Origin: Scenedesmus sp. PABB004
Lineage: Eukaryota
Length of the DNA: 64,000 nucleotides
Assembly (NCBI GenBank): GCA_014905635.1
Contig: JABVCE010000013.1
Location: 682,001 to 746,000, forward strand
Direction of reading: 5' to 3'
The translations under genes were made by a program, and so were the position numbers. Position 1 is the stretch's first letter. Every line of letters begins with the position of its first letter. The notes beneath the pieces were generated by a model. It did no database searches, was not told the origin of the DNA, and saw nothing but the letters and a program-made list of their open reading frames with translations. Shown piece after piece: positions 21,476 through 57,100 of this stretch.

Positions 21476-22332
21476 TCACGCCTTGCGCCGCCGCAGCGCG
21501 TCCTGCAGGAAGACCGCGTGTGAGGGCGCCACCTTGTCGTCGAACTGGGCCCACAGGTCGGGCGGCGAAGCCTGCACGGCGGGCAGGGTAGGGCAGGGGC
21601 AGCGGTGAGCGCGACGCGCGCCCCGCGCTGCGTGGTCGCGCGTCGTGTGCCCTCCGACCGAGCGCCGCGGCGAGCTGCGCACCTCGGACCACAGGTAGAT
21701 GCTGGTGATGTCGCAGTCTGCAGTATCTCGGTCAGGGTGCTTGTCATACCAGTCGTCAAACAGGTGGACAGCGAGCGACTCCGACTCGATCCACAGCCGG
21801 GTCAGCGCGGTCAGCGCCGTCAGCCGCACGATGCCACGCGGCGACAGCCGCTGCGACGCCAGCACCGACAGGTCGCGCAGGCCTGTCAGGCGCGCCAGCA
21901 CGTCGCCCGCCACGCGGTCGTCGTCCACGCTCTCGCCGCCCACCACCAGCGACGTCAGCGCGCTCAGATGCAGCAGCGCGCTCAGGCCCTGCTCGTTGGG
22001 CTTGGGCGCGCCCAGCAGCGACAGCGCCTGCAGCCCGGGGCAGCAGCTCACAATGTGCGCCAGCTCTGCCGCGCCCAGCACGGGCCCGTCTGGGCCGCCC
22101 TCGTCTGCGTACAGGTCTGTGATGTCCAAGAATCCATCAAGAAACGCCTCATCATCCACGCCCAGCCGCAGCATGCGCAGCGCGGCGCACACGGGCGAGC
22201 CCGCCGCCGGGAACGCGGCGAGCAGCGCGCCGTCGGGCAGGTCGCAGTCGGGCAGGTGCGGCGACGCGGTGAGGCCCGCGTACAGACCCACAAACTCGGC
22301 GTGCAGGTCCGCCAGCTCGTCTTCGTCTGACC
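21476..22332 (-). pseudogene. F-box/LRR copy 2: 5'-deleted C-terminal remnant
   Basis: Only the last ~270 codons remain. HLTELDLRDCDLP is shortened to HLPDCDLP. Intron 21682-21572 is retained in position. An insertion near the end gives an early TGA (21476) and shifts the homologous AQELRQQL tail out of frame. Confidence 0.75.
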
Positions 22333-22936: not shown

Positions 22937-25900
22937 TCACAGCTGCTCGCCCTGGTCAGGCCGCGGCTGGTGCTCCGCGTCGGCCCCGTCCGACACCGTC
23001 GCGGCCAGGGCCGCGAGCGCCAGCAGCCCCTCCTTGACGGCGCACGGCACCGCGACGATCGCCGCGGCGCCGCCGCCGCCGGCGGCCTCGCCCTGCGGCA
23101 CGACCGCGGCCGCGCCCACGGCCGGCATGCTGCGCGGCGCGCCCACGGGCCGGCCGGCGCCGGACGCGGCCGCGCCGGCGCCTGTGGCGACGCCCGCGCC
23201 GCCCGGCGCGGGCGCGGCGGCTGCGCGGCCCTCTTTGAACGCCAGGCGGAAGCGACTGTACCCCCCGGCGCCGGCGCCGCCGCCGCCGCCCGGCGCGGGG
23301 GGCGCAAACGGCGTTTCGGCGCTGGGCGCGTAGCTGCTGGCCCCGGTGACAAAGCCAGGGGCAGCGGAGGCGCCGCCCGGCGCCATGCGGCTGTAGCCGC
23401 CCCCGCCAGCGGCGCCGGCGCCGGCGCCGGCGTCGGGCGGCGCCGCGCCGCCGCGCAGCTGCTGGGCGAGCAGCGAGTTGGAGGCCACCACGGAGCGGCG
23501 CACCTCCTCGACCTGCGCCAGCGCCGCGGCGACCTTCTCGGCCGCCGCGCGGCGGGCCGCCTCCTTGCTCGCGAGCCGCGCCTCCGCCGCCTCGCTGGCG
23601 AGCGCCAGCGCGGGCGCGGCGGCAGCGGGCGCGGCGGCCGCGGGCGCACGGCTGCTGCCCGCGCCGCCGTCGCCGTCGCCGCTGCTGCTGGTGCTGCGTG
23701 CGCCGCCGCCGCCGCTGCTGCTGCTGCTGCTGCCCTTGCGCGCGCCGCCGCTGGAGCGGGGGCCGCCAAAGCCGCGGCCGCTGCTGCTCCCGCCGCCCTT
23801 GCCGTTGCCGTTCTTGCCGCTGCCCTTGGACTGGAAGACGGCGGCGATCGCCTCGATGGGCGACCGCGGCTGCTTCGCCGGCTCCGGCTGCGGCTCGGGC
23901 TCGGGCTCCGGCTCCGGCTCCGGCTGCGCCTCCGCCTGCGGCTCCGGCTGCGCCGCGGGCGGCGCGGCCTGCTGCTCCGCTGGCGGCGCGGGCGCGGTGA
24001 TGGTCGCCGAGATGGTGACCTGCCCCATCGACGCGAGGGGGATGCCCATGCGCGACATGAGCGCCGCGAGCAGCTCCTTTGCGTCCACGTCGACGCTCAG
24101 GCTCTCCGCCGAGAACGTGATCGTGCCGTCCGTGCCCAGGTTGACCGCCGCCGGCTGCGCCGCCGGCTGCGGCTCGAGCGGCTGCTGCTGCTGCTCCGCC
24201 TCCGGCTCCGCCGGCTGCTGCGCCGCGGCGAGCGCGGGCTCGGGCTGCTGCTGCGGCGCGGGCTCCGGCTGCTGCTGCTGCTGCTGCTGCTGCTGCGGCG
24301 CGTCGTCGGCGTCGAGGCTGCCCGCGGCGCTCGCGGCCTCGACCGCCGCGGCCGCGGCCTTCATCGCCGCCGCGGCCTCGGCCGCCGCCGCGGCCTCTGC
24401 CGCCGCCGCCGCCGCGAGCTCCCCGGGCGTCGGCAGCGGCGGCGGCGCGAGCGCGCTGAGCTGCTCCAGGTCGGCCGCGATCGCGCTGTTGCCGGCCTGC
24501 TTCGCCGCCTCGAGCAGCAGGCTCGCGCGCTGGTCGGCCTGCTGCTCCAGCGCCGACGCGGCGGCGAGCAGCTCCTCCACATACTCCTCGGCGAGCCGCC
24601 CCTCGTCCACGCCCGCCGCGCCGAGCGGCAGCGGCGCCGCGGGCCCGCCGTCGCCGCCGCTGCGCGAGAGCGCGTCCTCCGCCGCCGCGAGCAGCTGGTC
24701 CACCGTCGCCGACAGCACCGTCTCGCTCACGTGGCTCGCCTTGATCGCGCCCAGGCCGGGCACCGCCACGACGCCGTCGTCGCCGCCGCCGCCGCTGCCG
24801 GCCGGCGCCGGCGCGGCCGCGGACGCCGCGGCCGCGGCGGGGGCGGCGGACGGCGGCGGCGAGCCGAAGCCCTCAAAGCTGGGCAGCTCCGAGGGGTCGA
24901 TGATGGCGACCTGCAGCTTGCCGCTGTCGGGCAGCTCGGACCGGCCGCCGCCGCCGGCCGCCGCCGCGCGCTGCGCGAGCTCCGCGTCCGCCTCTGCCGC
25001 GGCCTCCTGCGCCAGCTGCTGCTGCGCCGCCATGGCGGCCTCCTTGCTGCGCTGGCGCGCCTCGATCGCCTCCTGCACGCCGCCCTCCAGCAGCGCGACG
25101 GTCGCGTCATACTTCTGCGCCGGCGCGGCGCGGCGCGGGGCAGGGCGGGGCGGGGCGGCCGCGCGTGAGCGCGCGCCCGCGCGCAGGCGGCGGGGCCCGC
25201 CCCGCGCCCCAGGCCGGCGCGGCGGCCGCGCGTGAGCGCCACGCGAGCGCGCGCCCGCGCGCGGGCGGCGGGGCGTGCTCCGTGCCTTCCCCAGGTCGGC
25301 GCCGAGCCGCGCCCTGGGTCGGCGCCGCACCTTGAGCCCCTCGCTGAGCAGCGACATGCGCTGGTCGAGCTTGCGCTTCTTCTCCTGGATCGCCATCACC
25401 CGCGCCTCGACGGCCTTGAGCTGCTGCTTCAGGTACGCCCTGCGCGGCGGCGCGCGGCGGCGGCGCGGTGGGCGCGCAGCGCCGCGCGCGGGCGGGCGGC
25501 GCGCGCCGCCGCCGTCGCCCCGCCCTCCGCGCCCCTCCCGCGGCCAGCCAGCGCGCGGCGTTGGGGCGCCGCACCGGTCGGGCTTGACCTCCACGCGGCT
25601 GTTGGTGACGTCGTTGAAGCTGCACGACACGCCGACCTGGCCCACGGGCGCGCCCGACACGCTCGTCGTCTCGGGGATGAGCACGCTGCGGTCGGCGCCC
25701 TGCTCCCAGCGCACGCCGCCGCCGGCCGAGGGCGGCTCCTGCATCACGACCTTGAAGTTCACCGCGCCGACGGGCAGCTGCACGTCGAGCGTCCACGTGT
25801 GGCCCTCGTGCCACTCCATCGTCGGCGCCTGCGCGCGCGCGCGCGCGCGCGCGGGCGCGGGCGGCGGCGGCGGCGCGTGGGCGGCGGCGCGCGGGCCCGG

Positions 25901-30483: not shown

Positions 30484-32658
30484 TCAAACCCATTCGCGCG
30501 CGCGCACCGCCAGCTGCTGCAGCAGCCCCTGCGCGTGCGCCCCACGCCGCCGCAGCGCGTCCTGCCAGAAGACCGGGTGCGAGGGCGCCACCTTGTCGTC
30601 AAACTGGGCCCACAGGTCGGGCGGCGAGGCCTGCGCGACAGCGCGGGCGGGCAGGGGCAGCGGTGAGCGCGTCGCGTGCACGCGCGTTGTGTGCCCTCCG
30701 CCAGAGCGCCGCGGTGAGTTGCGCACCTCGGACCGCAGGAAGATCTTGAAAGCATTGCAGTATTCATCGTCTGGGTCGGACGAGGGACCCAGGTCGCGAG
30801 CGAGCGACTCCGACTCGACGTGCAGCCGAGTCAGCGCGGTCAGCGCCGTCAGCCGCACGATGCCCCGCGGCGACAGCTGCTCCGACGCCAGCACCGACAG
30901 CTCGCGCAGGCCGGTCAGGCGCGCCAGCACACTCCGCGCCACACCGTCGTCCACGCTCTCGCCGCCCAGCACCAGCAACGTCAGCGCGCTCAGCTGCAGC
31001 AGCGCCCTCAGGCCCTGCCGCTCCTCGGGCTTGGGCGCGCCCAGCAGCGACAGCTCCTGCAGCCCTGGGCAGCAGCCGGCGATGCGCGCCAGCTCTGCCG
31101 CGCCCAGCACGGGCCCGAATGGGCCGCAATCATCCGAATACAGGTATGTGTAAGGAATAAAACCGTCAAACGCCTGCTCGTCCACGCCGAGCCGCAGCAC
31201 GCGCAGCGCGGCGCACGCTGGCGCGCCGGCCGCCGCCGGGAACGCGGTCAGCAGCGCGCCGTTGGGCAGGTCGCAGCCGCGCAGGTCGAGCTCGGTCAGG
31301 TGCGGCGACGCGGTGAGGCCCGAGCACAGACCCACAAACTCGGCATGCAGCCGCTCGCCGTCGTCATCATCCACGCCGTCCAGCTCTGCCTGGTCGTCCG
31401 CCCACAGCGCAGCAAGCACCGCCCGGCCCAGGCGCAGATGCCGCAGCTCGCGCAGCAGCGGCAGCACGCGCAGCAGCGTGCGCGTGTCGCCGTTGGGCAG
31501 GACATGAACTGACAGCCACGACCCACCCCAGTCGCCCACCCACAGCGAGGTGAGCACAGAGGCGTGGTGGTGCAGCAGGGCCGGGTCAAACGCAACGGCG
31601 CCGATCAACGCCAGGCTCTGCAGGCACGGCAGCTCGCGCAAGCTGCAGTCCGCCGTCAACTGAAGCCGCCCGCATCCCCGCAGCTCCAGCAGCGTCAGGC
31701 TGGCCGGCAGCGGCGGCAGCTGCGCCGCCGCCCACTTGCTGAGCCGCAGCTCGCGCAGCTCCTGCAGCTGGCTGATGGGGGCCAGGCCGCTGGCTGCACC
31801 GCTGAACGACAGGCGTGGATTGCCTGTCCAGTAACAGCTGGCCCCCAGGCTGAGCGACGTGAGCGCGTGCAAGCGAGCAAACACACGCAGGTCCAGCTCG
31901 GCGTCGCGCATCAGATGCACGCTCAGCGCCCGCAGCTCGCTCAGCGCCGCCAGGTTGGGGATGGTGCTGGCGCTCCAGCCGCGCAGGCTCGACACGCTGA
32001 GCCGCGTGAGCGCGCTGGGCAGCTCGTGCGCGCCCGTCAGCAGCGGTTGCTCTGTCTTGTCGTAGTAGCTTCGCTCCTCAAGCTCCAGGTCGCGCAGGGC
32101 CGTCAGAGTGCTGAGCTCACACGCCAGTGAGCCGCAGCAGCCCAGCAGCCGCAAGCTGGTGAGCTGGTCGCCAGCTGCTGCTGCCGCTGGAGCGGCCGCA
32201 GCGCCAGCCGCCTCGCCGCCTGCCACCGGCGCGTCCGGCGGCAGCAGCGTAACGTCCTCCAGGCTGAGGTGCCGCAGCGCCGGCAGCGGCAGCAGCAGCG
32301 GCAGCTGCACCTCCAGCGACCACCAGCTGTGAATGTCCACGCGCTCCACGTGGCGCCCGTGCCGACCCAGCCACGCCAGGAGCACCTTGCCCTTCTGCAC
32401 CTGCCTGTCATCATCGCCGGTGGCCTTGTTGAACTGCACCTCGCTGGTCGCCAGCACCGCCGCCGCGCGCCATGCGCGCGCCACGCGCGCCGCGGCGCCG
32501 AGGCGGTCCCTGACGCTCAGGCGGCGGAGCACCAGCGCCAGCACCTCCACTGGCAGCTCCTGCCCGCTGCTGCGCTTGCTAGCGTGGTTGGGCCCCATAG
32601 GCAGCTCCTCCCCTGGCCCTGCCGGGTCGCTGCTGCGCTTGCTGGCGCGCTGTCCCAT
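30484..32658 (-). CDS. F-box/LRR protein, copy 3 (intact; 96-nt in-frame intron 30726-30631)
   Basis: ELPVEVLALVLRRLSVRDRLGAAARVARAWRAAA plus an LRR series colinear with copy 1. Confidence 0.85.
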   Translation of the reverse strand: MGQRASKRSSDPAGPGEELPMGPNHASKRSSGQELPVEVLALVLRRLSVRDRLGAAARVARAWRAAAVLATSEVQFNKATGDDDRQVQKGKVLLAWLGRHGRHVERVDIHSWWSLEVQLPLLLPLPALRHLSLEDVTLLPPDAPVAGGEAAGAAAAPAAAAAGDQLTSLRLLGCCGSLACELSTLTALRDLELEERSYYDKTEQPLLTGAHELPSALTRLSVSSLRGWSASTIPNLAALSELRALSVHLMRDAELDLRVFARLHALTSLSLGASCYWTGNPRLSFSGAASGLAPISQLQELRELRLSKWAAAQLPPLPASLTLLELRGCGRLQLTADCSLRELPCLQSLALIGAVAFDPALLHHHASVLTSLWVGDWGGSWLSVHVLPNGDTRTLLRVLPLLRELRHLRLGRAVLAALWADDQAELDGVDDDDGERLHAEFVGLCSGLTASPHLTELDLRGCDLPNGALLTAFPAAAGAPACAALRVLRLGVDEQAFDGFIPYTYLYSDDCGPFGPVLGAAELARIAGCCPGLQELSLLGAPKPEERQGLRALLQLSALTLLVLGGESVDDGVARSVLARLTGLRELSVLASEQLSPRGIVRLTALTALTRLHVESESLARDLGPSSDPDDEYCNAFKIFLRSEVRNSPRRSGGGHTTRVHATRSPLPLPARAVAQASPPDLWAQFDDKVAPSHPVFWQDALRRRGAHAQGLLQQLAVRAREWV

Positions 32659-33497: not shown

Positions 33498-35639
33498 TCA
33501 AACCCATTCGCGCGCGCGCGCTGCCAGCTGCTGCAGCAGCCCCTGCGCGTGCGCCCCACGCCGCCGCAGCGCGTCCTGCCAGAAGACCGGGTGCGAGGGC
33601 GCCACCTTGTCGTCAAACTGGGCCCACAGGTCGGGCGGCGAGGCCTGCGCGACAGCGCGGGCGGGCAGGGGCAGCGGTGAGCGCGTCGCGTGCACGCGCG
33701 TTGTGTGCCCTCCGCCAGAGCGCCGCGGTGAGTTGCGCACCTCGGACCGCAGGAAGATCTTGAAAGCATTGCAGTATTCATCGTCTGGGTCAGACGAGGG
33801 ACCCAGGTCGCGAGCGAGCGACTCCGACTCGACGTGCAGCCTGGTCAGCGCGGTCAGCGCCGTCAGCCGCACGATGCCCCGCGGCGACAGCTGCTGCGAC
33901 GCCAGCACCGACAGGTCGCGCAGGCCGGTCAGGCGCGCCAGCACACCGCCTGCCAAGCCGTCGTCCACGCTCTCGCCGCCCAGCACCAGCAACGTCAGCG
34001 CGCTCAGCTGCAGCAGCGCCCTCAGGCCCCACTGCTGCTTGGGCTCCAGCGCGCCCAGCAGCGACAGCTCCTGCAGCCCTGGGCAGCAGCCGGCGATGCG
34101 GGCCAGCTCTGCCGCGCCCAGCACGGGCCCGTTCGGGTCGCACTGTCTCGCAGATAGGTCTGTCACTTCAGCAAAGCCGCAAAACGCCTCCTCGTCCACA
34201 CCCAGCCGCAGGGCACGCAGCGCGGCGCACGCGGGCGCGCCAGCGGCCGCCGGGAACGCGGCGAGCAGCGCGCCAGCAGGCAGGTCGCAGCCGCGCAGGT
34301 CGAGCTCGGTCAGGTGCGGCGACGCGGTGAGGCCCGCGTACAGACCCACAAACTCGACGTGCAGCTGCTCGCCATCGCCGTCGCCCACGCCGTCCAGCGC
34401 TGCCAGGTCGTCCGCATCCAGCGGCGCAAGCATCGCCCGGCCCAGGCGCAGGTGCCGCAGCTCGCGCAGCAGCGGCAGCACGCGCAGCAGCGTGCGCGTG
34501 TCGCCGTTGGGCAGGCATGCGACCCGCCAGCCGCCCAGCGACAGCGAGGTGAGCGCAGAGGCGTGGTGCTGCAGCAGGGCCGGGTCAAACACAGCGACAT
34601 CAATCAAGGCGAGGCTCTCCAGGCGCGGCAGCTCGCGCAAGCTGCAGTCCGCCGCCAGCTCCAGCTGGCTGCACTGCCGCAGCCGCAGCAGCGTCAGGCT
34701 GGCCGGCAGCGGCGGCAGCTGCGCCGCTGCGACCTTGCTCAGCCGCAGCTCGCGCAGCTCCTGCAGCTGGCCAATGAGGGCCAGGCCGCCGGCTGCACCG
34801 CTGACCGACAAGCGCACAGAGCCACTGAGCCAGCCAGCCCCAAGGCTGAGCGACGTGAGCGCGCGCACGCCGGTCAGAAACCGCAGGTCCAGCTCGGCGT
34901 CGCACTCGAAATCCACGGCCAGCACCCGCAGCTCGCTCAGCGCCGCCAGGTTGGAGGCAATGCTGGCGCTCCAGCCGTGCAGGTTTCACAAGCAGAGCCG
35001 CGTGAGCGCGCAGGGCAGCGCATGCAAGCCCGCCAGCAGCGGCTCATCGCTGGACATGAGCTCGCTGAGCTCCAGGTCGCGCAGGGCCGTCAGGCTGCTG
35101 AGCTCCCGCGCCAGGGAGCCGCAGCAGCCGTGCAGCCACAAGCTGGTGAGCTGCGCGCCGCCCGCTGCTGCCGCTGGAGCTGCTGCCGCGCCGCCCGCTG
35201 CCGCCGCCTCGCCGTCTGCCGCCGGCGCGTCCGGCGGCTGCAACTCGGCACACTCCAGGCGGAGGTGCCGCAGCGCCGGCAGCTGTGGCAGCAGCAGCGA
35301 CAGCTGCACCATCAGCCCGGGCCAGGTCACCTCCACGCTCTCCACGTGCCGCCCGTGTCGGCCCAGCAGCCAGTCGAAGAACTTCTCGCCCTTCTGCATG
35401 TCATGCTTGCTGAACAGCTTCAACTCCACGCTATTCGGCACGCCAGGCTCGCTGGTGTTGAACTGCACCGCGCTGGTCGCCAGCACCGCCGCTGCGCGCC
35501 ACACGCGCGACACGCGCGCCGCGGCGCCGAGGCGGTCCCTGACGCTCAGGCGGCGGAGCACCACCGTCAGCAGCTCCACCGGCAGCTCCTGCACTGGCCC
35601 TGCCGGCGCACTGCTGCGCTTGCTGGCGCGCTGTCCCAT
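33498..35639 (-). pseudogene. F-box/LRR copy 4, full length but with an in-frame TGA at 34988-34986
   Basis: ORFs 34986..35639 and 33498..34925 share a frame. ALTRLCL*NLHGWSAS aligns to ALTRLSLSSLHSWSAS of copy 1. Confidence 0.75.
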
Positions 35640-37988: not shown

Positions 37989-40900
37989 ATGCTCGCCGCG
38001 CGCCCGGCGCGCCTGGGTGCGGCGAGCGCGCGATGGCCCGCGCTCGTGCCGCCCGCTGGCGCGTGTGCCGCTCACGCCGCCCTCACTCCCGCACCCGCCA
38101 GGCTCTGGGTCATCAGGGGGCAGCGGCGCGGCCCGCCAGGCGCAGCGCCTGCTGCGCGGCGCGCCGGCAGCAGCGGGTGCGGCGTGCGCGGCGCCGCGCG
38201 GCCGCCGCGGCGCCCACGGCGGCGCGGCCTCGCAGCCGACGAGCCTGCCTGCCTCCCTGCCTCCTCGTGAGCACGTAGGGCCGGCCGGCGGTCGGCGCCG
38301 CCGCGCCACGCCGGCGCGCGCGGCGCCGGGGGACGAGCCGCAGAAGCTGGAGGTCGCGGCCCCGGAGGCGGGGCGCCTGGACCTGCCGTTCGAGAGCGAC
38401 ATGCAGACCTTCAGCGGCGGCAGCACCCCCGGCGCGAGCAGCGGCAGCGGCAGCAGCAGCAGCGGCACGCCCGGTGGCGCGCTCGGGCCGAGTGAGTGGC
38501 CGCGGGGCACGCGCGGCGCGCGTGGCCTCCCCCCGCCCCTGCTTCTCGTCTCTCCCTTGCGCCCGCACTCGCGTGCACACGCGCGCGCGCCACGCCGCCC
38601 CCCGCAGGCCCCGTGCCCGCCGGCACCGTCGTGCACGGGCGCTACACGGTGCAGGAGGTGCTCGGCCGCGGCGCCAACGCGACCACCTACAGCGCGGTCG
38701 ACAACACCGACGGCAAAAAGGCACGCCGCCCGGGGCCGAGCTCGCCGCCGGCAGCACCGCGCTGGCCGGCGCGGCCGCGGCTGCGGCCGCGCCCGCCAGC
38801 CCACGCCGCCGCGGCCGCGGCCGTGGCCGCGCCGCGCAGGTCGCGCTCAAGGCGCTGTCGCTGCGCGGGCTGCGCGACTGGAAGCAGCTGGAGCTGTTCC
38901 AGCGCGAGGCGGTCGTGCTGCAGGGCCTCGCGCACCCCGGCATCCCCGCGTACATCGACTACTTTGAGGAAGACACCGCCAGCGACCGTGCATTCTACAT
39001 CGTCCAGGCGCGCGCCGCGCCGCGCCGGGGGAACCTAGACCCTGCCGCGACGCGGCGCCGCGGCGGGCGCGGCGCCGCGGCGGCGGCTGTGCTGCCGGCT
39101 GCGCCGCGCCGGCGGCGGCGGCGCGCGGCGCGCCGGCGTGCTGCCGCGACGCTGCGCCGCGCCGCGCCGCGCAGGAGGTCGTGCGCGGGCGCTCGCTCGC
39201 CGACATGGTCGCGGGCGGCATGCGCGCGGACGAGGGCGAGGTGACGCGCGTCGCGCTGGAGCTGCTGGCCATCCTCAAGTACCTGGGCGGCCTGCGCCCG
39301 CCGGTGATCCACCGGGACATCAAGCCCGAGAACGTGGTGCTCGAGGGCGGCGCCTGGGGCGGCCGCGTGTTCCTGGTCGACTTTGGCGGCGTGCAGGGCG
39401 CGAGCGCGGCGGGTGCGGCGGCGACGCGGCGCGGCGGCGCGGCGGGGCGACGCGCGCGCCGGCGGCGCCGGCGGGGGCGCCGCGCCGACGCCCCGCGCGC
39501 CGCGCCGCGCGCGCGACGTCGCGCAGGCGACGTGCTGGGGTCGACCATCGTCGGCACGTACGGCTACATGGCGCCGGAGCAGTTCTCCGGCGCGGCGAGC
39601 CCCGCGAGCGACCTGTACAGCCTCGGCGCGACGCTGCTCTTCCTGGCCAGCGGCCTGCCGCCGGGCGCGTTCCCGCAGCAGCGCATGCGCCTCGCGTGGC
39701 GGTGCGGCGCGGCGCGCGGGCCGGCGGCGCGCTGCGCGCGGGGCCGGCGCCGGCGCGCGGGGGCTGGCGCTGCGCCGGCGCGCACCTGACCGCCGCGCTG
39801 CACCGCGCCCCGCAGCGACCGCGTGACGGTCGGCGCGCAGCTGGGCGAGCTGCTTGACGGCCTGCTGGAGCCGGTGGCGGAGGACCGCCTCAGTCCACAG
39901 GCACGCGCGCGCCTGGCCGGGCCGAGCTCAGCTCAGGGGCGAGCTGGGTTGAGCTGACGCGAGCCGAGCTGAGCTGAGCTGAGCTTCCCCCGCCTGACTC
40001 GACCGCAGGAGGCGATCGACATCGCCACCGGCAAGGCGGCGCGCCGCCGCAAGAAGGCCGCCGCGGCGGCGGCCAAGTCGACGGCCGCCGCGGGCGGCGC
40101 CGGCGCCGCGGGCGGCATGGTCCGGCTGCGCGACGGCAGCCTCTACATGTGCGGACGCCGCGGCTGCGCCCGGCGGCGCCGCGCGCCCGGCCGCCGCCCA
40201 GCCGCGCCCGCCGCCGCACGCGGCCGCGCGCGCGCGCGCCCGCCGGCCCGCCTCTCACCCGCCGCGCGCCCCGTCCCCCCGTGTCCCCGTGTCCCCGCGG
40301 CAGGCCGCCGTCGATGCCGACGTCGCCCGTGCGCAAGCCCGCCGGCAGCCGCGTGGTGCTGAGCAGGGAGGGCGGCCGGCTGGACATTGACATCCCGCCC
40401 GAGGGCCTCTCGGGCAACACCATCGGCACGGGGCTCTTTGCCGTCGCGTGGAACGCGTTCGTCGCGTTCTGGACGGTGCGCGCCCCGCGCCGCTGCGCCC
40501 CGCACGTCGCCGCGCCTCACGTCCCGCGCCCCGCGCCGCCGCGCCTCTCTCGCGCGCGCCGCCACACCTCTCGCGCCGCCGGCGCCAGATCTCGGCGGTC
40601 GCGAGCGGCGGGCTGCTGTTTGCGCTCTTCTCCGCGCCCTTTTGGTTTGCCGGCTACCAGCTTGCCGGCCAGGCCTTCTCCGGCGCGCTCAGCCACGAGC
40701 GCTTCGCGATCGGCCGCAGCAAGTGGCGCGTCGCGCAGGTGCGGGGCGGCGCGGCGGCCGCTGCGTCGGGGGCGCGGCGGCGGCGGCGGCGCGCGCGGGC
40801 GGGCGGCCGCGCGCGCCCCGCCCCGCCATGCGCCGACCTGCGACCCCTGCCCCGCTGCCGCGCGCGCGCGGCGCCGCAGGAGCTGGCGCTGCTGCGCGGC

Positions 40901-42057: not shown

Positions 42058-42227
42058 ATGCTGTCAGAGCGGCAGAAGCGCGCGGTCCTGGCGCGGGAGG
42101 CGGCGGAGCGGGTGGAGAAGGTGCGGCCCGGCGGTCGGGCCGCGGCCGCCGCCGTCGCACAGCGCTGCTGGCTGCCGCCCGCCCGCGCGGGCGCGCGCGC
42201 CGCGGCCGGCGCTCAGCCGCGGCCTGC

Positions 42228-42289
<62 letters not shown>

Positions 42290-45200
42290 AGACGCTGGAC
42301 GTGTTCCGCCTGGTGGAGGTGCTGCACGGCGACGACGTCGTCGAGGTCGCCGCGCTCGTCACGGCCGAGCGCGGCGCGGCGCCGAAGCTCACCTTCCCGC
42401 GCGCCATGCAGGGCGCCGCCTTCCTGCCGCGGGTGCGCCGCCGCCTGCCAGCCGGCTGCCCCGCACCGGCGGCGGCGCCCGCCCCGCCCGCGCCGGCCCG
42501 CGCCGCCCGAGCGACGGCGGCGCCCGGCCGCCTGCTGCGCTGCCCGCAGATGGTGGTCGACTTGCAGGAGGCGTACGACGCGCTGCCGCAGCACCTGCTC
42601 GCCTGCCTGCTCGCGGCGGCGGGCGACGTGCTCGCGGCGGGGCCGCGCTGGGCGGCCGGCCTGACCGAGGTCAAGCTGAGCGACGCGGGGCCGTGGGAGC
42701 ACGTGTGCCGCGGCGCGACCGTGCTCGCCACGCTGCTGGAGCTGCTGCCCAAGTACCGGTGCGGCGGGCGGGGCGCTGCGTGCTGCGCGGCGGCGGCGGG
42801 CGGGCGGGGCGCTGCGTGCTGCGCGGCGGCGGCGGGCGGGCGGGGCGCTGCGTGCTGCGCGGCGGCGGCGGGCGGCGGCGAGCGCCGCACCCTGCGCCCT
42901 GCCGCTGCGCGCTTGCCCGCAGGCAGCTGCACGCCGAGGTCATGTTTGACCCCACCTTCACCGGCGCGCTGCTGGACCTGGTGCTCGCGATGCAGCTCGC
43001 CGCGGCGGGGCCGCTCGCGGCGGCGCTCGCCGACGAGCGCGCCCCGCAGGCCGAGCGGTGCGCGCCGCGGCGCGCGGGCGGTGCGCGGGCGGGCGGGCGG
43101 GCGGGCGGCGGCGGGCAGCCACGCGCGGGGCCCGCCGGTCACGGCCCGGCCGCCCCACGCGCGCAGGCTCGCGGCGGCGCGGTCGCAGTGCGGGCTGGTC
43201 AGCGGGTCGCTCGCGGTGCTGGTCGGCCTCTGGGGCGTCCCGGGGGCCGACGTGCAGCTGGTCAGCGAATTTGCGTACGGCGCGGTGGTGCGGCAGCTGC
43301 TGGCGCAGGAGCAGGTGCGCGGGCGGCGCCGGGCCGCCGCCCAGCGTGCGCAGCGGCGCGCACGCCGCCGGCCGGCGCCGCCGGCCGGCGCCGGCGCCGC
43401 CGATCGCCGAGCGTGCCCGCCGCGCGCGCCGCCCGGGGCCGGCCGCGCGCCGTGCAGGCGCCTCAGATCGTGCGCTCCACGCTGGACGCCGCGGCGATGA
43501 TGCTCCTGGGCCTGCGCAGCCTGCTCGCGTCGGCGCACCACCTGCCCGCCGCCGCGCTGGCGGAGCTGTCGCAGCACAGCGGCACGGCGCTGCACACGCT
43601 CGCGCAGGTGCGCGGGGCCGCAGCCACGGCGGCGCGCCCGCCCTTCCGGCGCGGAGCGCGAGCGCTCGCCCTCGCCGCCGCCGCCGCGCAGCTGTACAGC
43701 CATGGCCTCATGTACCACGCCACGCTGCTCATCAGCCCCGGCGGGACGGCGCTCGTGCGCCTGCTGTGCGCGGGCGCGGCGCTCGCCGACCTCGTGCCGG
43801 GTGCGCGCGGCACGCGGCACGCGGCACGCGGCGGGGGCCCGCACCGGCGCGCGCCCGCACGGCGCGCGCTCCCTCTCGCTGCCCCACGCCTGTCCCTCAC
43901 AACATTGTCCGCGACCGCCGCGCGCACACGCGCGCTCGCGTGCCCCAGACAACGCCGGGGCCAAGGAGGGCATCGCCCCGCTGCTGCTGGGCCGCTGCAT
44001 GGCGCTGCTGGTGCAGCTGTCCGAGTTCACATCTCCCGCCTTCGTCGACACCCTGGGCGCAGCGCACGGCAGCCGGCAGCGCCTGCTGCACGTGCTGCAC
44101 GCCGCCGCGGCGCTCGCGTCGCGCCGCTTCCTCGGCCCGCCGCCGCCGCCCGGCGCGGCGGCGCTCGCGCAGGCGGCCGCCGGCGCGTCCGCGCTGGACG
44201 GCCGGGTCGACGCCGCCGCGCTCGGGCCCGCCGCGCTCGCTGCGCTGCAGGCAGACGCGGCGCGGCTCAAGCCGAGCGAGCCGCAGCTGCTGCTCGCGAC
44301 GCTGCGGCTGCTGGAGCTGGCGGGCGACGACAGCGGGCTGCGCGAGGGCGCCATGGAGGCGCTCGCAGGCGGCCTCGGCGACGCGCTCGCCACGGAGCCC
44401 CTGCTGTTTGCCTCGCGGTGCGTGGACGAGCCCGCGCCGCGCCGGCGAGCCCTCGCCGCGCCGCCGCGTGCCACGCCGCCGCGCGCCACATGCCGCCGAG
44501 CACAACGCCGCCGCGCGCCACGCTGCTGCCCCGCAGCTGGTGCGGCGGCGACGTCGCCGTCACGCAGCACCTGCACGACGGCGTGCAGCTCGGCAGCGCG
44601 AGCGCGGCGGCGGCCCGCGACGCGAACAAGACCGCCGGCGTCGCGCGCTGGCTCGTGCTCGGCAAGCGCCTGCCGCCGCCGGCCGGGCGCGCCGGCGGCG
44701 AGGGGCCCTGGGCGGGCGGCGGCGACGCCGACGCCGACCTCGCCGCGCTCGTCGCGGCCAAGGCGTCGGCGCTGGAGCGCGCGCTGCTGCTGTTCAAGCT
44801 GCTCGGCGTCCTGCACTACTGGGAGGCCAAGCTCCCGCCGCGCCAGCGCCGCCGCTTCGTGGCGCTGCTGGTCGGCGGCCTGCGCGCGCGCGCGCGGTCC
44901 GAGCCCGACTTTGCCGCGTCCGCGCGCCGCGTGCGCGGCAACCTCGGCGCGCTGCTGCGCTTCCTGGAGCCGGTCAGCGGCGGCGAGGGCGGCGGCGCGG
45001 AGGAGGGCGACGTGCTGCTCACCCCGCTGGAGGTCAGCCTGGTCCGGGACCTCAACGCCGTCGTCGGCGAGCTCGCTGCGACGGCGTGGGCGGAGCAGCT
45101 GCCAGGGCCGCCGGTGCGTGCCGGGCCGCCGAAGTGCACAGCGGGGGGCGCGTGCACCGCGGCACCGCCGGCGCGGAGGGCCCCGCCTGCCGCTGACGCC

Positions 45201-45571
45201 GCCGCCGCCGCCGCCGCCGCCGCCGCGCGCGCAGCCGCCGCCCGCGCTGGAGGTGCCGGCGGAGGAGGCGGAGGCGCCGCCCGACCTGACACTGCTGGCA
45301 CCGGGCACGGGCCCCCGCGCCGCGCCGGGCGGCGCGGGGCAGCTGCTGGCGTCGCCGCGCGGCGTGAAGCGCGAGGGCGGCGACATGGATTGGGCGCCCG
45401 GCGGCGCGGCCGGCAGCCCGCCGGGCGCCGCGCTGACGGTGGACGACCTGCGCGCGATCCGCTCGCTGCTGGCGCAGCACGACGCCGCGGCCGGCGGCGG
45501 CGGCGGCAGCGGCGGCGGGGGCGAGGAGAGTGATTTCTATATGGACTGCGACGACGGCTCGCCGGGCGCGG

Positions 45572-45638
<67 letters not shown>

Positions 45639-46769
45639 CCGGGCGCCGTGGGGCGCGGGCCTGGCCGGCTGGGTGGCGGGCCACCTCGGCTGGGGCGGCG
45701 GCGGCGGCGGGCGGCGCCCCGCGGCGGCCAACGGCGGCGCCCGGGGCGGCGCCGCGCGCGCCGACAGCGGCGCCGAGTACGGGGAGTGCTTCGAGGAGGG
45801 CGGCCCCGGCTGGGCGGGCTCGGACGAGGAGGCCGGCACGCCGCACGCGGGCCGCGGCGCCGGCGCGGCGACGCCGCCCGCGCCGTGGGGCGGCACCGGC
45901 GACCGCGACGCGCACGCGCGGCCCCGCGGCGCGTCGAGGCGCAAGCCTGGCGGCGGCGGCGGCGGCGGCGGGCCGCGCGGCGCGGCCAGCCCCGACCCTG
46001 CGTTCCTCGCCGCCGGCACGATCGCGCCCAACGCGCCCGGCGCCAACCGCAAGGCGATGCCCGGCGGCCAGAAGCCCGCGACGCCCAACTGGTGCGGCCA
46101 CGCGGCGCCCACGCGGCGTCGCGGCGGCGCCTTGCACGCGCCTCTGACGCCGCTGCGCCGCTGCCGCCCGCCCGCCAGGTGCACCACCAACTACCTCGGC
46201 GTGCGCAAGCGCCCCAGCTCGCGCTTCATCGCAGAGATCCGCGACCGCCAGCAGCGCAGGGTGCGGCGCGCGCGCGCCACCGCTGCCCGCGGCGCGGGCG
46301 CAGGGCTCGCCGCGCCGCGCGCCGACGCGCGCCGCGCTCCCCGCGTGCCCCCGCGCGCCGCAGCGCATCTGGCTCGGCAGCTTCGCGACCGCCGAGGACG
46401 CGGCGCGCGCGTACGACGGCGCGGCGCGCCGGATCCGGGGCGCCGACGCGGTCGTCAACTTTCCGGACGAGGCGCGCGCTGCCGCGCCGCCGGGCAGCGC
46501 ACGCTGCGGCGGGGCCAGCGCCCGCCCCCAGCGCAGCGCTCCCACCACGCGCGCAGGTGGACAACATCGCCCCCGAGGGACTGCTGCTCAACGGCGGCCA
46601 CGGCGGCGGCGGGGGCGGCTGGCAGGCGTTTGACGACGTGAGCCCAGGCCCCGGCGGCGGCGGCGGCGGGCTGGCGGCGCTGCTCGGCGCGGTCGCGGCG
46701 GCGGAGGAGGAGCAGGACGCGGCGGCGGCGGCGGCCGGCGAGCGGGGAGACGGGCAGGCGCCCAGCTGA
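42058..46769 (+). CDS. Putative transcription/chromatin factor: NDX (nodulin homeobox) N-terminal-like helical domain, polyQ linker, C-terminal AP2/ERF domain
   Basis: AP2: [19 protein letters not shown]..|[34 protein letters not shown] (~46190-46470). N-terminal exons 42292-45090 are colinear with recalled plant NDX motifs (see findings). TGA at 46767-46769. Confidence 0.85.
42230..42283 (+). repeat. (GCC)18 microsatellite at 3' end of first intron
   Basis: Perfect GCC run just before the acceptor at 42290-42291. Confidence 0.85.
42763..42873 (+). repeat. Intronic 36-bp minisatellite, 3 copies
   Basis: Unit gggcggggcgctgcgtgctgcgcggcggcggcgggc repeated three times. Confidence 0.85.
45574..45636 (+). 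repeat. (CAG)21 polyQ tract in NDX-AP2 linker
   Basis: Perfect CAG run in the coding frame. Confidence 0.9.
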
Positions 46770-46779
46770 CGAGCGCGCC

Positions 46780-46784
46780 TGTAA
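46780..46784 (+). promoter_or_regulatory. TGTAA polyadenylation signal
   Basis: TGTAA 11 nt after the NDX-AP2 stop; the next gene starts ~200 nt later. Confidence 0.5.
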
Positions 46785-46986: not shown

Positions 46987-49301
46987 ATGGCGCCGGCAGC
47001 CGCGCCGACGTTTGATTCGGCACTCGTAGCGCCGCCAGCGCTCATCTACGCGGCTGGTGCGCCGCCCAACGTGTGCCTGCAGGAGCTTCCGGTGCGGCCT
47101 GGCGCTGCGCTTGCTGCTTTTTCCCGCCCGCGCCGCCGCGCCGGTCCGAGCTGACCGCGCGCGCTGCAGTTCTCGCCGATCGACCGCCACGTCGGCATCA
47201 ATCGCTGCTCCCTGCCGTGGGCGTGGCTGTTCGCCACCCCCCTCGCGCCGGCAGCCCTCGCCACCGCGCTGGCGGACGCCCTGGCCGCGCACCCGGCGCT
47301 GGCCGGCCGCGTGCGCCCGACGGGGCCGCACGACTGGGCGCTGGCGTGCTGCAACGCGGGCGTGCCGCTCGCGCTGCACGCGTCGCGCAGCAGCCTGGCG
47401 GACGTGGTGCGCAGCGGGGTGATGCGGTGCCGCCGGGGCTTTCCCTTCCCTGACGCCTCGAGCGGGGCCGCCTCGCTGCCGCGCTTCGTGGAGGTGGGCC
47501 TGCCGGCAGGCCCACAGTGTGGGGGCGCCCAGTGGGCCCCTGCGCCAGCCGCGCGCGCGTGCCTGACCGCTGACAGCCGCCGCCGCCCGCCGCCGCGTGC
47601 CAGCCGCTCGACGCAGCGGCGGTGCTCGCAGGCACGGCGCCGCTGCTGGCGGCGCGGCTCACGCAGCTCGCGGGCGGCGGATGCATCCTGGCAGTCACCG
47701 CGTCGCACGTCGCGGTCGGTGAGCTTGACGGGAGCGGGCGCTGCGCCTGCTGGGCAAGGCGCCGCTGGCCGCCGCCCGAGGCGGCTGCCGCCGACCGGGC
47801 CGCGTGCCGCCCGCCGCCGCTGCCCTGGCCCACGCAGACGGGCGCTCGCTCACTGTCTTCATGGCTGCCTGGGGCGCCGCGCACGCCGCGCGCGCCGCCG
47901 GCACCGCCCCGCGCGCGCCGCGCGCCGCGCCGCTCTGCGGCGCGCGCCTGCTGCGCGACCTCGCGGCGCGGCCGCCGCAGCCGCCGCCGCCGGCGCTCGA
48001 CGGCCCGGGCGGCCCCGGCGACGCGACGGCGACTGCGGCGGTGGCGCGCGCGGCCGCGCCCAAGGCGGCGGTCGCCGCGGCGGCGCCGCCGGCCGACCTG
48101 CCCTACAGCCCCCACCCGCTGCACGCGACGCGCGTCCTCGCGCCCGGCTGGCTGCGCGCGCTGCGGCGCGCGTGGGCGGCGGGGCTGCAGCTGCGGGCCG
48201 AGGCGCGCTGCGCACAGCAGGCCTGGGCCGCGCCGGCGCGGGCGCGCGGCGTGAGCACCGAGCTGCTGCACATCCCAGACGCGGCGCTGCGCGGCCTCAA
48301 GGTGGGGGGACAGCTGCCGGCGCGGGCGCGGGCGCAGGGCGCACGGCGTCGCACGCCGGCCGTCTCAGCCCGCGCGCACACGGGCCGCCGCCGCCAGGCC
48401 ACCGCGAGCGCGCTGTGCGGCGAGGGGCAGTGGGTGTCCACCAACGACGCGCTCACGGCCCTGGTGTGGGTGCTCTGCTGCGCGCTGCGCGGCCGCCCCC
48501 TGCCGGGCCAGCCCCGCCCGCCGGGCCGGCTGCGGGAGAGCTGCGTCGGCATCGCCCTCGACCTGCGCACCGCGGCCGCGCCCACGCCGGCCAGCGTGCC
48601 CGGCGGCGGCGAGGGTGGTGAGGGCGGGCTGCCGCTGAGCTGGTTTGGCTCCGCGGCCTGGTCGGTGCACGTGCGCGCGTGCGCGGCCGACGGCGCGGCG
48701 AGCGAGCTTCCGGGCGGCTGCCTCGCCGCGCCCTGGCGCCCGGACACGCCGCCCGAGGCCTGGGCGGCGCTGTGCGGCGATGGCGAGGCGCTCGCGCGCT
48801 CGCTCGCGGCGGGCGCGGCGCGCGTCCGCGGCGCGCTTTCGGCGGTGCGCCGCGAGCCCGGCCTTGCCGGCGCGCTGCTGCGGCAGGTGGAGGACAGCAT
48901 CGCCGCGCCGCCGTCGGCGCAGCTGGCGATGGCCGCGTCGCTCGTCCACAGGTCGTCCGCGCGTGGGCGCTGATGGCTGCCGGCTGCGCGCTGCCGCCCG
49001 GCTGCCGAGGCCCCGCGCCGTCGCGTGCGTTGACCGCAGGCTCGACGCGTTTGTGACGAGCTGGCTGCAGTTTCCCATCCTGACGGACGTGGCGTTTGGC
49101 GGCGCGCCACTGGCGTTCATGGGCTGCGTGCAACCGGTCCCGCCGTTTCACGCTGCGATCATGCCCGCGCCGCCGGGCGACGGCGGCGTGTGGTGCTGGC
49201 TGAGCGTGCCGAGCGGCCTCGTTCCGGCGATGGCCGGCTCGCACGTGCTGCGCGCGCTCGTGCCGGGCGCGGCCTGGCTGTCGGCGCCGTGCGCGGCGTG
49301 A
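46987..49301 (+). CDS. BAHD/CoA-dependent acyltransferase (Transferase family)
   Basis: ALADALAAHPALAGRV, CCNAGVP, PLLAARLTQLAGGGCILAVTASHVAV|DGRSLTVFMAAW (HxxxD split by an intron), VSTNDALTALVW, VTSW..DVAFGG.P (degenerate DFGWG). Confidence 0.85.
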
Positions 49302-54155: not shown

Positions 54156-57100
54156 TCAGTACAGCCCGCCGAGCAGGTTGTGGGCGCGCGCGCGCAGGCT
54201 GGAGATGGTGTAGTTGTAGGCCTGCCCGCCGGCGCGCGGGTGCCACACAAACGCGGGCCAGTGGCGCGCGAGGCCGGCGCGCAGCGCCGCGTACTCGGCC
54301 GGCTTGATGGCCGCCAGCACGGCCGACACGTGCGGCAGGCGCGCCTTGGGCAGGCGCACACTGAACTCGTGGTACGGCAGCTGGTCCTGGTACGGCTGGT
54401 GCACGCCGTCCTGCGCGGCGCGCGCGGAGCCGGGCCAGCAGAGCGCGGCGCGCGTCGGCCGGCGCGGGCAACGGCGCGGGCGCGCGGGCCCCCTGCTCCA
54501 CCCCGGCGCCGCCCGCGGGCCGTCGCCGCGCCGCGCGGCGCCGCGCCTGCACGATGACGGGGACGCAGCCGAGCACGACGTACAGCCCCAGCGTGTTGCC
54601 CCAGCCGTGGCCCCAGGGCGCGAGGCAGAACTTGCTGCTGCGCGCGAGCTGCTTGAAGTCGGGCAGCTTGGGGTTGTCGCTGATCAGCACGTCGGGGCCG
54701 AGCTTGCCCGCCTTGAACAGCCGCCACAGCTCCTGCGGCGGCGCGTGCGCGCGTGCATGCGTGCATGAGAGGCGGCGCGGCGCGGGAGGGCGGGCGGCGG
54801 CGGCGCCGGCGCGGCCGCGCGCGCGCCTGGCGCACGCCGCCGCTGTGCTCCGGGCGGTCGCGGTTGATCGCGCCGGCGAAGAAGAGCAGGCGGCCCGACG
54901 GCACGGTGGCGGGGTCAAACGCCGCGTACGTCTCCTTTGCGAGCGCCTCCTGGCCGGCAAAGTAGGGCGCCGCGACGACGTCGCGCAGCGGCACGTGGCA
55001 CGCCGCGCCGCGGCGGGGCATGAGCGCAAAGTCGCCCGGCAGGCCGCCGTCCGGCGCGGCGTAGCCAAAGTGGGTGACCTTGATCGGTCCCCCGAGCAGC
55101 GGGTCGGCCGGGTCGATCCAGCACGCGCCGCTGCGGCGCGCGCGGTCGACGCGCAGCGGCGGGGTGGCGGGGAGGCCCCGCGTGAGCGACCGGACACGCA
55201 GCGCCCTGGTGCTCCCCGGTCCCCGCCCGCAACCAACACGCCGCCGGCGCCGGAGGCGGCCGCGCCGGCCCGCCCCCCGCGCGCCGCGCGGCGTGCGGCC
55301 TGCGTGCCCACCGGTCGTTGGGCAGCCAGAAAAAGTGGTCCTTGCCGGACGTGCGGTTGAAAAAGGGGTGCGCGCCCGCGACCCAGGTCATCACGCGGCG
55401 CAGGTGCTCCGTGACGTCACCGTTGGCCGCGCTGTACGCGTAGCTGAGCGCGGGGACGTAGAAGAGGCTCGCCTCCCTGCGCACAGGGGGCGCGCGGCGC
55501 GTGCGTTGTGTGCGTTGCATTGCGAGCAGCCGGCGGCAGGGGCGCGCAGGGGCGGCGCGCGGGCCCGCGCCGTGCCGCGCCGCACCAGGGGTTTTCTGTG
55601 CGCACGGCCCAGTCGGCCATGAATCCGCTGATGAATCCCTTGTAGGCAATGTAGCCGGGGTCGTGCCCTGGCCAGCCGGCACCGCGGCGGGGCCGGGAGG
55701 CAGGGAGGTGAGCGGACGTCGAGCCGTTTGCGGGAAGGGCGAGCGAGGGAGGGCGGGAGGGGGACGGGCGGGCCCGTCGGCCGCCGCCGGGGCGCCGCTG
55801 GCCAGCGCCGGGGCAGCCCCGCGCCGCGGCGCGCCGCGCGGCGCCGCACCCTGGAAGCCGACGAAGCGCTCCATGTCGAACGCAAGGTGCGTGGGCAGCT
55901 CGTACGCATACACGCGCAGCGCCGTGACCGAGCTGTGCGCGTTGTGCGGCGCGTACGCGCGCGCGCGGCTGCAGTCGCGCCCCCAGAAGCCCGGCTGGCA
56001 GTGGCAGAACCCGCCGCGGCAGACGCCGCGCCCGAGGCACTGGTTCAGGCAGGACGCCTTGTGCACCTGCGGCGTGCGCGCGGCGCGGCGTCGGCGTCGG
56101 CGTCGGCGGGGGCCGCCCGCGGCCGCGCGCGGCGCCGCTGCCGGTCGGGTCCTGCCCGGCGGGCGCGGGCGCACCTGCTCGCACTGCTCGCCGGCGTAGC
56201 CCTGCCAGCAGAGGCAGCGCGGCGCCGCGGTCGCGGCCTTCACGCACTGCCCCCGCCACATGCAGGACGCGGGGCAGCGCGCCAGCGGCAGCGCGACCAT
56301 GTCCGCCTCGCCCTGCGCGAGCGCCTTGACCTGCGGGCGGCGCCGACCGCGGCGGGCGGCGGCGGTCGGCGGCGGGCAGGCCCCGCGCCTGCGCGCCTGC
56401 GCGCGCGCCCCTCCGCGCCGCGCGCCCCCACTGCGCTCACCGCGGTCGCCTGCTGGCGGGTGAGGCCCTCGCGCTGGAGGTCGTCGCGGATGCCCCTGAA
56501 CCAGCGCACGCCCCCGCCGCGCTCCTCGGCCTCGCTCGGCACGTCCGAGTAGACCGCGCCGCGCGCGACGCGCTTGCCGCCGCCGCCGCCGCCCTTGGCG
56601 CCGCCGCCGGCCGGCACGAGGCGCTCGAAGCAGCGCACGAACCAGGGGTCGCGCGGCGTCTCGCACTTGCCGCGGTTGGGGCAGAAGAACGCCCGGCACT
56701 GGCGCAGGCACTCGCAGGAGCGCGGCATGCGGTCGCCGCAGTGCATCTCGGTCGCGTTGGCGGCCATCTTGCAGGCCGGGAACATCTCCTTGTTGCACAG
56801 CGGGCCGTAGTAGCCAAACGGGCACTCGCACCTGGCGCGCCGCCGCCGCCGCGGCCGCAGGGGCGCCGGGAGAGAGGGGCGTGGGCGCGCCCGCAGGCCC
56901 CCGCCGCGGCCCAGCCCCGCGCGCCGGCAGCGCCGCGCCGGCGCCCGCGCCACACGCGTCGTGCGCCCGCGCGCGCGCCGCGCGCGCACCGGCCCTCCTC
57001 GGCGTTGCAGTTGCCGCGCAGCTCGCAGCCGGGCGTGCACTTCTTGGCCGCCGCCGCCGCCGCCGCGGCCGCGCGCGCGTCGACGTAGTCCGGGTCCATC

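Follow-up and report, generated by a model that had tools for sequence, protein, structure and literature searches.

The DNA analyzed here, a window of 64,000 nt from Scenedesmus sp. PABB004 (contig JABVCE010000013.1, forward strand), carries at 42058-46769 a gene whose product would join a helical N-terminal region, akin to the NDX-A domain (Pfam PF25246, Nodulin_N) of the plant nodulin homeobox (NDX) proteins, to a C-terminal AP2 domain. Such an architecture, with an AP2 domain in place of a homeodomain, was the subject of an original prediction made from the DNA letters alone. The gene was modelled on the + strand with 13 exons, a coding sequence of 3261 nt, a product of 1086 amino acids and a TGA stop; the start at 42058 and the stop at 46769 were adopted from that prediction, and the start codon is a putative one. 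The exons are listed below, where the blocks are stretches that by eye resemble plant NDX sequences, numbered from the N-terminus.

42058..42120, + strand: exon 1, start codon ATG at 42058, 21 amino acids; donor GTGCG at 42121.
42292..42432, + strand: exon 2, NDX-A-like block 1 (LVEVLHG); G+C per codon position 0.83/0.45/1.00.
42550..42758, + strand: exon 3, blocks 2 and 3; by eye similar to plant LPLHL and LRGIRLLHSLCDL.
42923..43057, + strand: exon 4, remainder of block 3 (FDPTF..LLDLV); by eye similar to plant LDDVK..LMDFV/LLDLV.
43167..43314, + strand: exon 5, from the gene model and its codon periodicity.
43458..43607, + strand: exon 6, block 4; by eye similar to plant LCQQCEASLQFLQSL.
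43692..43800, + strand: exon 7, from the gene model and its codon periodicity.
43949..44417, + strand: exon 8, blocks 5 and 6; its tail (44275-44415) resembles Nodulin_N model positions 341-387.
44537..45113, + strand: exon 9, blocks 7-10; its core (44736-44966) resembles Nodulin_N model positions 433-516 of 518.
45235..46091, + strand: exon 10, linker of low complexity that is rich in Pro, Gly and Ala and carries polyQ and an acidic patch; in frame with exon 9.
46179..46260, + strand: exon 11, first half of the AP2 domain; contains no ATG.
46364..46471, + strand: exon 12, second half of the AP2 domain.
46557..46769, + strand: exon 13, Gly/Ala/Glu-rich tail with the TGA stop.

The structure of the gene is shown by its splice sites and its base composition. 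All acceptors end in cag, and the donor is GTGCG in 11 of the 12 introns, donor 12 being GC (gag|gcgcgc). Because the G+C content of the whole window is 73-83%, bare open reading frames carry little weight in it. Codon periodicity is strong in every exon, with a G+C content of 0.93-1.00 at third codon positions (GC3) and of 0.43-0.68 at second positions, and the introns, at 82-93% G+C, have no such periodicity, so that the gene exceeds the mere open frames that DNA of 80% G+C contains. Exon 13 depends on the 85-nt intron 12 (46472-46556), the sole GC-AG intron of the gene (gag|gcgcgc...cag), for which no GT donor fits; its frame is backed by periodicity, the second codon position having the lowest G+C at coordinate mod 3 = 1. 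An alternative donor for intron 12, inside GCGGTCGTC, was rejected, because it truncates the AP2 domain and breaks the exon 13 frame that the periodicity supports. The peptides that had been listed for the N-terminal region are all present in the spliced translation, and in the same order, so that the observation as such is confirmed; a single letter had to be corrected, FASSWCGGD reading FASRWCGGD in the model because the codon at the exon junction is cg|c. Two of the introns are repetitive: intron 3 contains a perfect 36-bp tandem repeat (42763-42875, 3.1 copies, 100% matches), and intron 1 a long (CGC)n/(GCCGCG)n run (42139-42289).

The C-terminal AP2 domain is certainly genuine. Pfam scans (24,736 models) were made with exon-sized pieces and not with the full-length spliced protein, and in these the AP2 family (PF00847) matched exon 11 over model positions 2-25 (E 0.043, 14.5 bits) and exon 12 over positions 29-53 (E 4.3e-5, 24.2 bits). 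The two halves are colinear across intron 11 and agree with an AP2 domain of ~54-60 amino acids with three strands and a helix, and neither piece alone reached the 33.3-bit cut-off of PF00847. Among solved AP2/ERF domains, exon 12 matched those of WRI1 (7wq5, E 2.1e-11), AtERF1 (1gcc, E 1.8e-10), ERF096 (5wx9, E 1.9e-9) and TEM1 (E 6.7e-8), and exon 11 matched the first strands of AtERF1 (2gcc/1gcc, E 0.014-0.015). The DNA contacts of AtERF1 are said, after Allen et al. 1998, to be made by Arg150, Arg152, Trp154, Glu160, Arg162, Arg170 and Trp172; in the exon 11 and exon 12 alignments six of these seven residues are identical in the algal domain, and Trp154 is replaced by Ser. The presence of a single AP2 domain makes the protein ERF-like. 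Upstream of it, exon 10 carries a perfect (CAG)22 at 45573-45638, which encodes a tract of 22 Gln, and gave only polyQ-type matches in Pfam. An AP2/ERF domain behind a polyQ/Gly linker, as had been proposed, is therefore borne out by the PF00847 halves, the matches to solved structures and the repeat. The proposed lack of a homeodomain also held, since no homeodomain family was found in any exon (Pfam E<=1) or in three read-through translations (E<=10), and across the same exons and read-through translations no DNA-binding family other than AP2 was reported. For the NDX-B domain, exons 10-13 gave polyQ-type families and AP2 only, and a very divergent remnant is conceivable.

The N-terminal region belongs to a conserved family of algal proteins. 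With phmmer, exon 9 (192 amino acids) retrieved 13 proteins from 1.84 billion representatives (E 4.5e-48 to 1.2e-4), which are 43-61% identical to it and 69-271 amino acids long, and a word-indexed search with exon 8 yielded three more relatives (P0014-P0016, 51-64% identical). These relatives are open frames about as long as an exon, whose tails are unrelated, the form expected of gene-called unspliced eukaryotic contigs, and the borders of exon 8 (both) and of exon 9 are common to them. No longer relative was found in searches restricted to longer proteins with exon 9 and with alignment A1, a negative result that is weak evidence. As judged from predicted structures and profile searches, the region is best described as an alpha-solenoid-like scaffold. 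AlphaFold2 predicted all-helical models from the alignments of exon 9 (five helices, mean pLDDT 53.2) and exon 8 (seven helices, mean pLDDT 43.9), of which only the secondary structure was used, the models being too poor for a fold search. A profile search of the Protein Data Bank (PDB) with the exon 9 alignment A2 matched three designed helical repeat proteins only (E 0.003-0.007), and for exon 8 and the exon 9 ortholog the ESM Atlas listed solenoid families such as SYO1, Nup192, HEATR5A, DOP1 and Tra1.

The relatives, which are less biased in composition, suggest a link of this scaffold to plant NDX. The Pfam model of the NDX-A domain, Nodulin_N, has 518 positions and a gathering cut-off of 27 bits, and 14 of the 16 ortholog fragments were scanned (P0011 and P0012 were left out as very short). 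Nodulin_N was matched by eight of the 14 fragments, with E 0.0021-0.13 and 11.1-17.0 bits; it was the sole family for seven of these eight and the second one for P0008, and DUF592, ORC5_lid, DUF2277 and GxGYxYP_N_2nd occurred once each among the 14. The matches fall into two regions. In the tail of exon 8 all four covering fragments matched (E 0.0021-0.13), the model position being the residue number + 232, over model positions 341-393. In the core of exon 9 four of the nine scanned covering fragments matched (E 0.0045-0.13), all four with the model position at residue + 366, over positions 433-516. The two matched regions are 115 amino acids apart in the protein vs 93 model positions, which makes them colinear, a single Gly/Ala-rich insertion lying between them. 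Individually these matches are not significant; that a single one of the 24,736 models should keep turning up, in a constant register and in two regions independent of each other, is however hard to put down to chance. One of the exon 8 orthologs, P0015, whose Pfam match reaches Nodulin_N model position 393, stays open beyond the exon 8 border, running at residues ~170-185 into ...FAARCAGWCANR..., and in that species the WC motif may follow without an intron or past a very short in-frame one.

By eye, and at about 20-30% identity, ten blocks are colinear between the algal protein and plant NDX, the first with LHG on the N-terminal side and the last with V.L[VL]R on the C-terminal side. NDX protein sequences, among them those of Lotus and soybean, are printed in supplementary file 4 of PMC2775110 (cut at about 360 residues per cell), and against these and other NDX sequences of that supplement the land-plant motifs that the prediction had listed proved accurate. 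The blocks, all compared by eye, are the following.

Block 1: alga LVEVLHG; plant NDX AVKELHG.
Block 2: alga, a 15-residue stretch of exon 3; plant NDX IDMDKLAGSLPLHLT.
Block 3: alga, a 16-residue stretch of exon 3; plant NDX LRGIRLLHSLCDLSPR.
Block 3, continued: alga FDPTF..LLDLV; plant NDX LDDVK..LMDFV.
Block 4: alga, a 15-residue stretch of exon 6; plant NDX LCQQCEASLQFLQSL.
Block 5: alga, a 15-residue stretch of exon 8; plant NDX ILLILCEAESLSFLD.
Block 6: alga, a 14-residue stretch of exon 8; plant NDX MRLADIFSDDSNFR.
Block 7: alga FASRWCGG; plant NDX FLSCWCSS.
Block 8: alga, a 12-residue stretch of exon 9; plant NDX LFVKFFANLHCF.
Block 9: alga, a 10-residue stretch of exon 9; plant NDX NLRSLLSHAE.
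Block 10: alga LEVSLVR; plant NDX EDVQLLR.

Blocks 6 and 8-9 coincide with the stretches that the Pfam matches had picked independently.

Whether the NDX-like and AP2 exons belong together was analyzed on the DNA itself. In a sliding profile, coding periodicity on the + strand extends from ~42.2 to ~46.7 kb and is interrupted only by gaps of intron size, and non-periodic DNA flanks it upstream (41.3-42.2 kb, ~0.9 kb) and downstream (46.75-47.1 kb, ~0.35 kb). Exon 10, which links the two parts, is stop-free in its reading frame; its GC3 was 0.94-1.00 in all five 150-nt sub-windows tested (45235-45984), and sliding windows gave 0.95-1.00 at third positions as far as 46080. Exons 9, 10 and 11 join in compatible splice phases without adjustment, intron 10 has 87 nt and even unspliced lets the frame run into the AP2 exon, and exon 11, having no ATG, cannot be a first exon. 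The pentanucleotide TGTAA, which we take to be the chlorophyte poly(A) signal, occurs seven times in the window (both strands) and not once within the gene; the copy at 46780..46784 (+ strand) begins 11 nt past the stop codon, is the only one within 10 kb, and is hence a putative polyadenylation signal. In the relatives, a V codon (GTN, that is, a donor) follows the end of exon 9 in all seven sequences that reach this point, and the sequences diverge beyond it, which indicates that their NDX-like gene also extends downstream. No DNA of the relatives was recovered: none of the 53 pattern matches to the exon 9 alignment A2 or of the 598 to P0016 in metagenome contigs, and none of the 23 to A2 in prokaryote genome contigs, was confirmed.

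On the sequence comparisons above, the N-terminal ~640 amino acids are very probably related to the plant NDX-A/Nodulin_N domain, a homology that is supported at a sub-threshold level. Several results weigh against this relationship. All the Nodulin_N matches lie below the cut-off (the best at 17.0 bits vs 27), and six of the 14 fragments gave none (P0002, P0003, P0006, P0009, P0010 and P0013), the first four of which cover the exon 9 core. Nodulin_N was also absent from the window's own pieces, namely the 12 exons scanned at E<=1 and the three read-throughs and six sub-stretches scanned at E<=10, a null result that we assume to be due to their extreme Ala/Gly/Arg bias. P0008 gave a one-off match to the unrelated LRRC37AB_C with E 3e-4, which shows that such E-values can be spurious; the 13 short fragments that phmmer retrieved with exon 9 include no plant NDX; the ESM Atlas listings contain generic helical-repeat families and no Nodulin_N cluster; and the N-terminal two thirds of the NDX match come from the comparison by eye. 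The region could instead be a lineage-specific ARM/HEAT-like repeat unrelated to NDX, in which case the gene would simply encode an AP2 factor of the alga whose N-terminus is long and helical, and the matches would reflect shared helical-repeat composition. The scores below the cut-off, the silent exons of the window, the phmmer result and the designed helical repeats in the PDB profile search fit that explanation, as does the appearance in the Atlas of unrelated solenoids (SYO1, Nup192, HEATR5A and DOP1) at similar scores. It has to account, however, for one of 24,736 models appearing in eight of 14 fragments in a constant register and in two independent colinear regions, for the lack of any Pfam match to another helical-repeat family, and for the fact that the matched stretches are the blocks most conserved among plant NDX (DDS..R, WC and NLH), and we regard it as quite unlikely. 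The NDX-like N-terminal region that had been claimed is accordingly kept in part: the same-register matches of the orthologs and the ten blocks speak for it, and the want of a significant score and the null result of its own exons speak against it.

We also hold it highly likely, from these sequence features, that the NDX-like and AP2 exons form one gene. Against this stand the derivation of the single-gene model from sequence features only, the GC donor that intron 12 requires, and the nature of exon 10, which is of low complexity and has in-frame ATGs that are possible starts of a separate AP2 gene. Two adjacent genes might thus have been fused by the model, an NDX-A-like gene that ends in or just after exon 10 and an AP2 gene that starts from an internal ATG of this exon. 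Exon 10 cannot be aligned to the relatives, open frames are cheap in 80% GC DNA, and the architecture is seen in this one gene, all of which leaves room for two genes. The one-frame periodicity in the five sub-windows and the high GC3 up to 46080, the absence of a stop codon on a path that crosses even the unspliced intron 10, the compatible splice phases, the lack of a non-periodic gap of the size that flanks the gene, and the lack of a TGTAA ahead of 46780 argue to the contrary, and two genes seem improbable. If there is one gene, it might still be ordinary for the users of databases, a real architecture that has already been catalogued, for instance as green-algal Nodulin_N + AP2 entries in InterPro or UniProt. 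PF25246 is present in Pfam, and full-length orthologs of normal composition might exceed 27 bits and be annotated automatically. Both searches for longer relatives, however, returned no full-length protein, and in the literature searched there was no mention of PF25246, Nodulin_N or the NDX-A domain in the present sense, nor of nodulin homeobox, AP2 and Chlamydomonas in combination. In published surveys the origin of NDX is placed in land plants (PMC2775110), the family is found "Only in land plants" (PMC10598176), or it is gained in Phragmoplastophyta (TAPscan v4, PMC11712027). Prior cataloguing is consequently possible but doubtful. As no description of an NDX-AP2 protein was found in the literature searched, the statement that this class had not been described before stands within that literature.

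Taken together, the NDX-A kinship, the single gene and the mode of action outlined here are likely to hold jointly. One nuclear gene of a very GC-rich, probably chlorophyte alga would encode a transcription regulator of ~1086 amino acids in three parts. The first (amino acids ~22-660) would be the all-helical scaffold, a remote homolog of NDX-A/Nodulin_N; the second (~668-950) a disordered linker, rich in Pro, Gly and Ala, that contains an acidic patch and the 22-Gln tract; and the third the single ERF-type AP2 domain near the C-terminus. The AP2 domain would bind double-stranded DNA in a sequence-specific manner and so tether the scaffold to target loci, where the scaffold may provide a protein-protein platform to partners that are chromatin factors or co-regulators, and the linker could serve as a disordered spacer or as an activation-type region. 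All of this is put forward as prediction as regards the single transcript, the binding to DNA, the function of the scaffold and its partner. In Arabidopsis, heterochromatic siRNA loci are sites of NDX action, RING1A/B of PRC1 are among the proteins with which NDX associates, and nucleic acids are bound by the homeodomain and NDX-B (PMC9420119, PMC10247719); the same reports call the function of NDX-A "not known in detail" (PMC9420119) and "less understood" (PMC10247719). The plant NDX-A is presumed to be a protein-protein platform, and by analogy our best guess for the algal scaffold would be a chromatin-repressive docking function.

NDX is described as plant-specific. The presence of an NDX-A-like domain in this gene suggests that the scaffold predates the point at which the NDX family is published to have arisen, and the surveys that place this origin (PMC2775110, PMC10598176 and PMC11712027) all detect NDX through the homeodomain. 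The prediction had further held that the scaffold has swapped its DNA-binding module. An AP2 domain is present and a homeodomain was not detected, and to that extent the claim stands; the direction of change that "swapped" implies does not follow from the results, and the interpretation as a whole is partly supported. A wider reading, which we consider rather unlikely but of consequence, would make NDX-A an ancient module of transcription or chromatin co-regulators, dating back to at least the common ancestor of green plants and maybe kin to Lines/LINS1, that was wired to DNA differently in each lineage, through AP2 in chlorophytes, through an atypical homeodomain in streptophytes and in trans in animals. 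If this ancient-module reading were true, the homeodomain would be a late add-on and not what is central to the function of NDX, and NDX-A would be the seat of the conserved task, which might for instance be to dock Polycomb machinery of the RING1 type or that of heterochromatin. Should the NDX-A kinship and the single gene hold, the origin of the scaffold would shift to well before land plants, the conserved unit would be the scaffold rather than the homeodomain, and a unicellular system would become available for the binding partners of NDX-A, free of the nucleic-acid binding by the homeodomain and NDX-B. Censuses of transcription factors that are based on DNA-binding domains overlook the history of accessory domains.

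Elsewhere in the window the following segments were recognized by Pfam.

6834-7076, - strand: kinesin motor (E 1.6e-18).
8943-9239, + strand: DJ-1/PfpI (E 6.2e-13).
25625-25870, - strand: CBM20 starch-binding domain (E 9.1e-6).
39139-39438, + strand: protein kinase (E 8.8e-9).
54514-54765, - strand: exostosin GT47 (E 7.7e-5).

These neighbouring genes fit a green-lineage nuclear genome, and together with the AP2 domain, the TGTAA signal and the extreme GC3 they make a chlorophyte the probable source. The next gene downstream (46988-47500 onward, + strand) begins ~220 nt after the stop codon and has a weak, sub-cut-off Pfam match to Transferase (BAHD-type acyltransferase; E 0.0019). At 21773-22066, 30832-31119, 31597-31815 and 33795-34145 (- strand), near-identical leucine-rich-repeat-like peptides (…CCPGLQELSLLGAPKP…LSALT.LV.GGESVDD…LTGLR.LSVLAS…) are encoded, which suggests that paralogous genes are clustered here; the segment at 33795-34145, the only one scanned, gave no Pfam match at E<=0.01.

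Three known systems can be compared with the algal protein. Animal Lines/LINS1 is helical as well and serves as a co-regulator alongside DNA-binding partners. One cluster of animal LINES proteins in the ESM Atlas, whose 66 members all (100%) have LINES_N, appeared both for exon 8 (43951-44415; rank 8, score 0.92) and for residues 49-240 of P0001, the exon 9 ortholog (rank 1 among named clusters, score 0.92). NDX-A may be related to Lines/LINS1, and this common cluster is a lead only: 142-151 of 256 features are shared, under the 170 typical of true family members, and LINES_N had no Pfam match in the ortholog fragments at E<=10.

With the ERF-type AP2/ERF factors (AtERF1, ERF096 and WRI1) the algal protein has in common a single AP2 domain, matched over both halves, and Arg150, Arg152, Glu160, Arg162, Arg170 and Trp172 of AtERF1 have identical counterparts in it. 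It differs from them in that the Trp of RPWGK in AtERF1 is a Ser in the alga (RPSSR), the loop preceding the third strand is one residue shorter, and the domain is interrupted by an intron. In addition, typical ERFs are small proteins, whereas the algal AP2 domain ends an N-terminal extension of ~950 amino acids.

The HD-NDX class of Mukherjee et al. 2009 (PMC2775110) is defined by an atypical homeodomain, in which six residues are inserted between helices 2 and 3. Its members further have NDX-A (~540 amino acids) upstream of the DNA-binding domain and NDX-B (~80 amino acids) downstream of the homeodomain. Two of these three features, the atypical homeodomain and NDX-B, were not detected in the algal protein, which carries an AP2 domain instead, so the gene is not an NDX homeobox gene and would be described as one for an AP2-family protein with an NDX-A-like domain. 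Identity to the land-plant NDX proteins (Arabidopsis At4g03090, Lotus and soybean) is low, with no phmmer connection, and the domain, of ~520-540 amino acids in land plants, spans ~640 in the alga, where it has extra Ala/Gly/Pro-rich insertions. What the two have in common is a long N-terminal helical domain with conserved blocks in equal order, which by eye are LHG, LP.HL, G..[LV]L..L..L, the DLV type, E..S..[FY][LV]D, DDS..[FL]R, WC, [GA]NLH[YC][WF], NL..LL and [ED]V.L[VL]R. In both, this helical domain lies N-terminal to a DNA-binding domain, in what is presumably a nuclear regulator.

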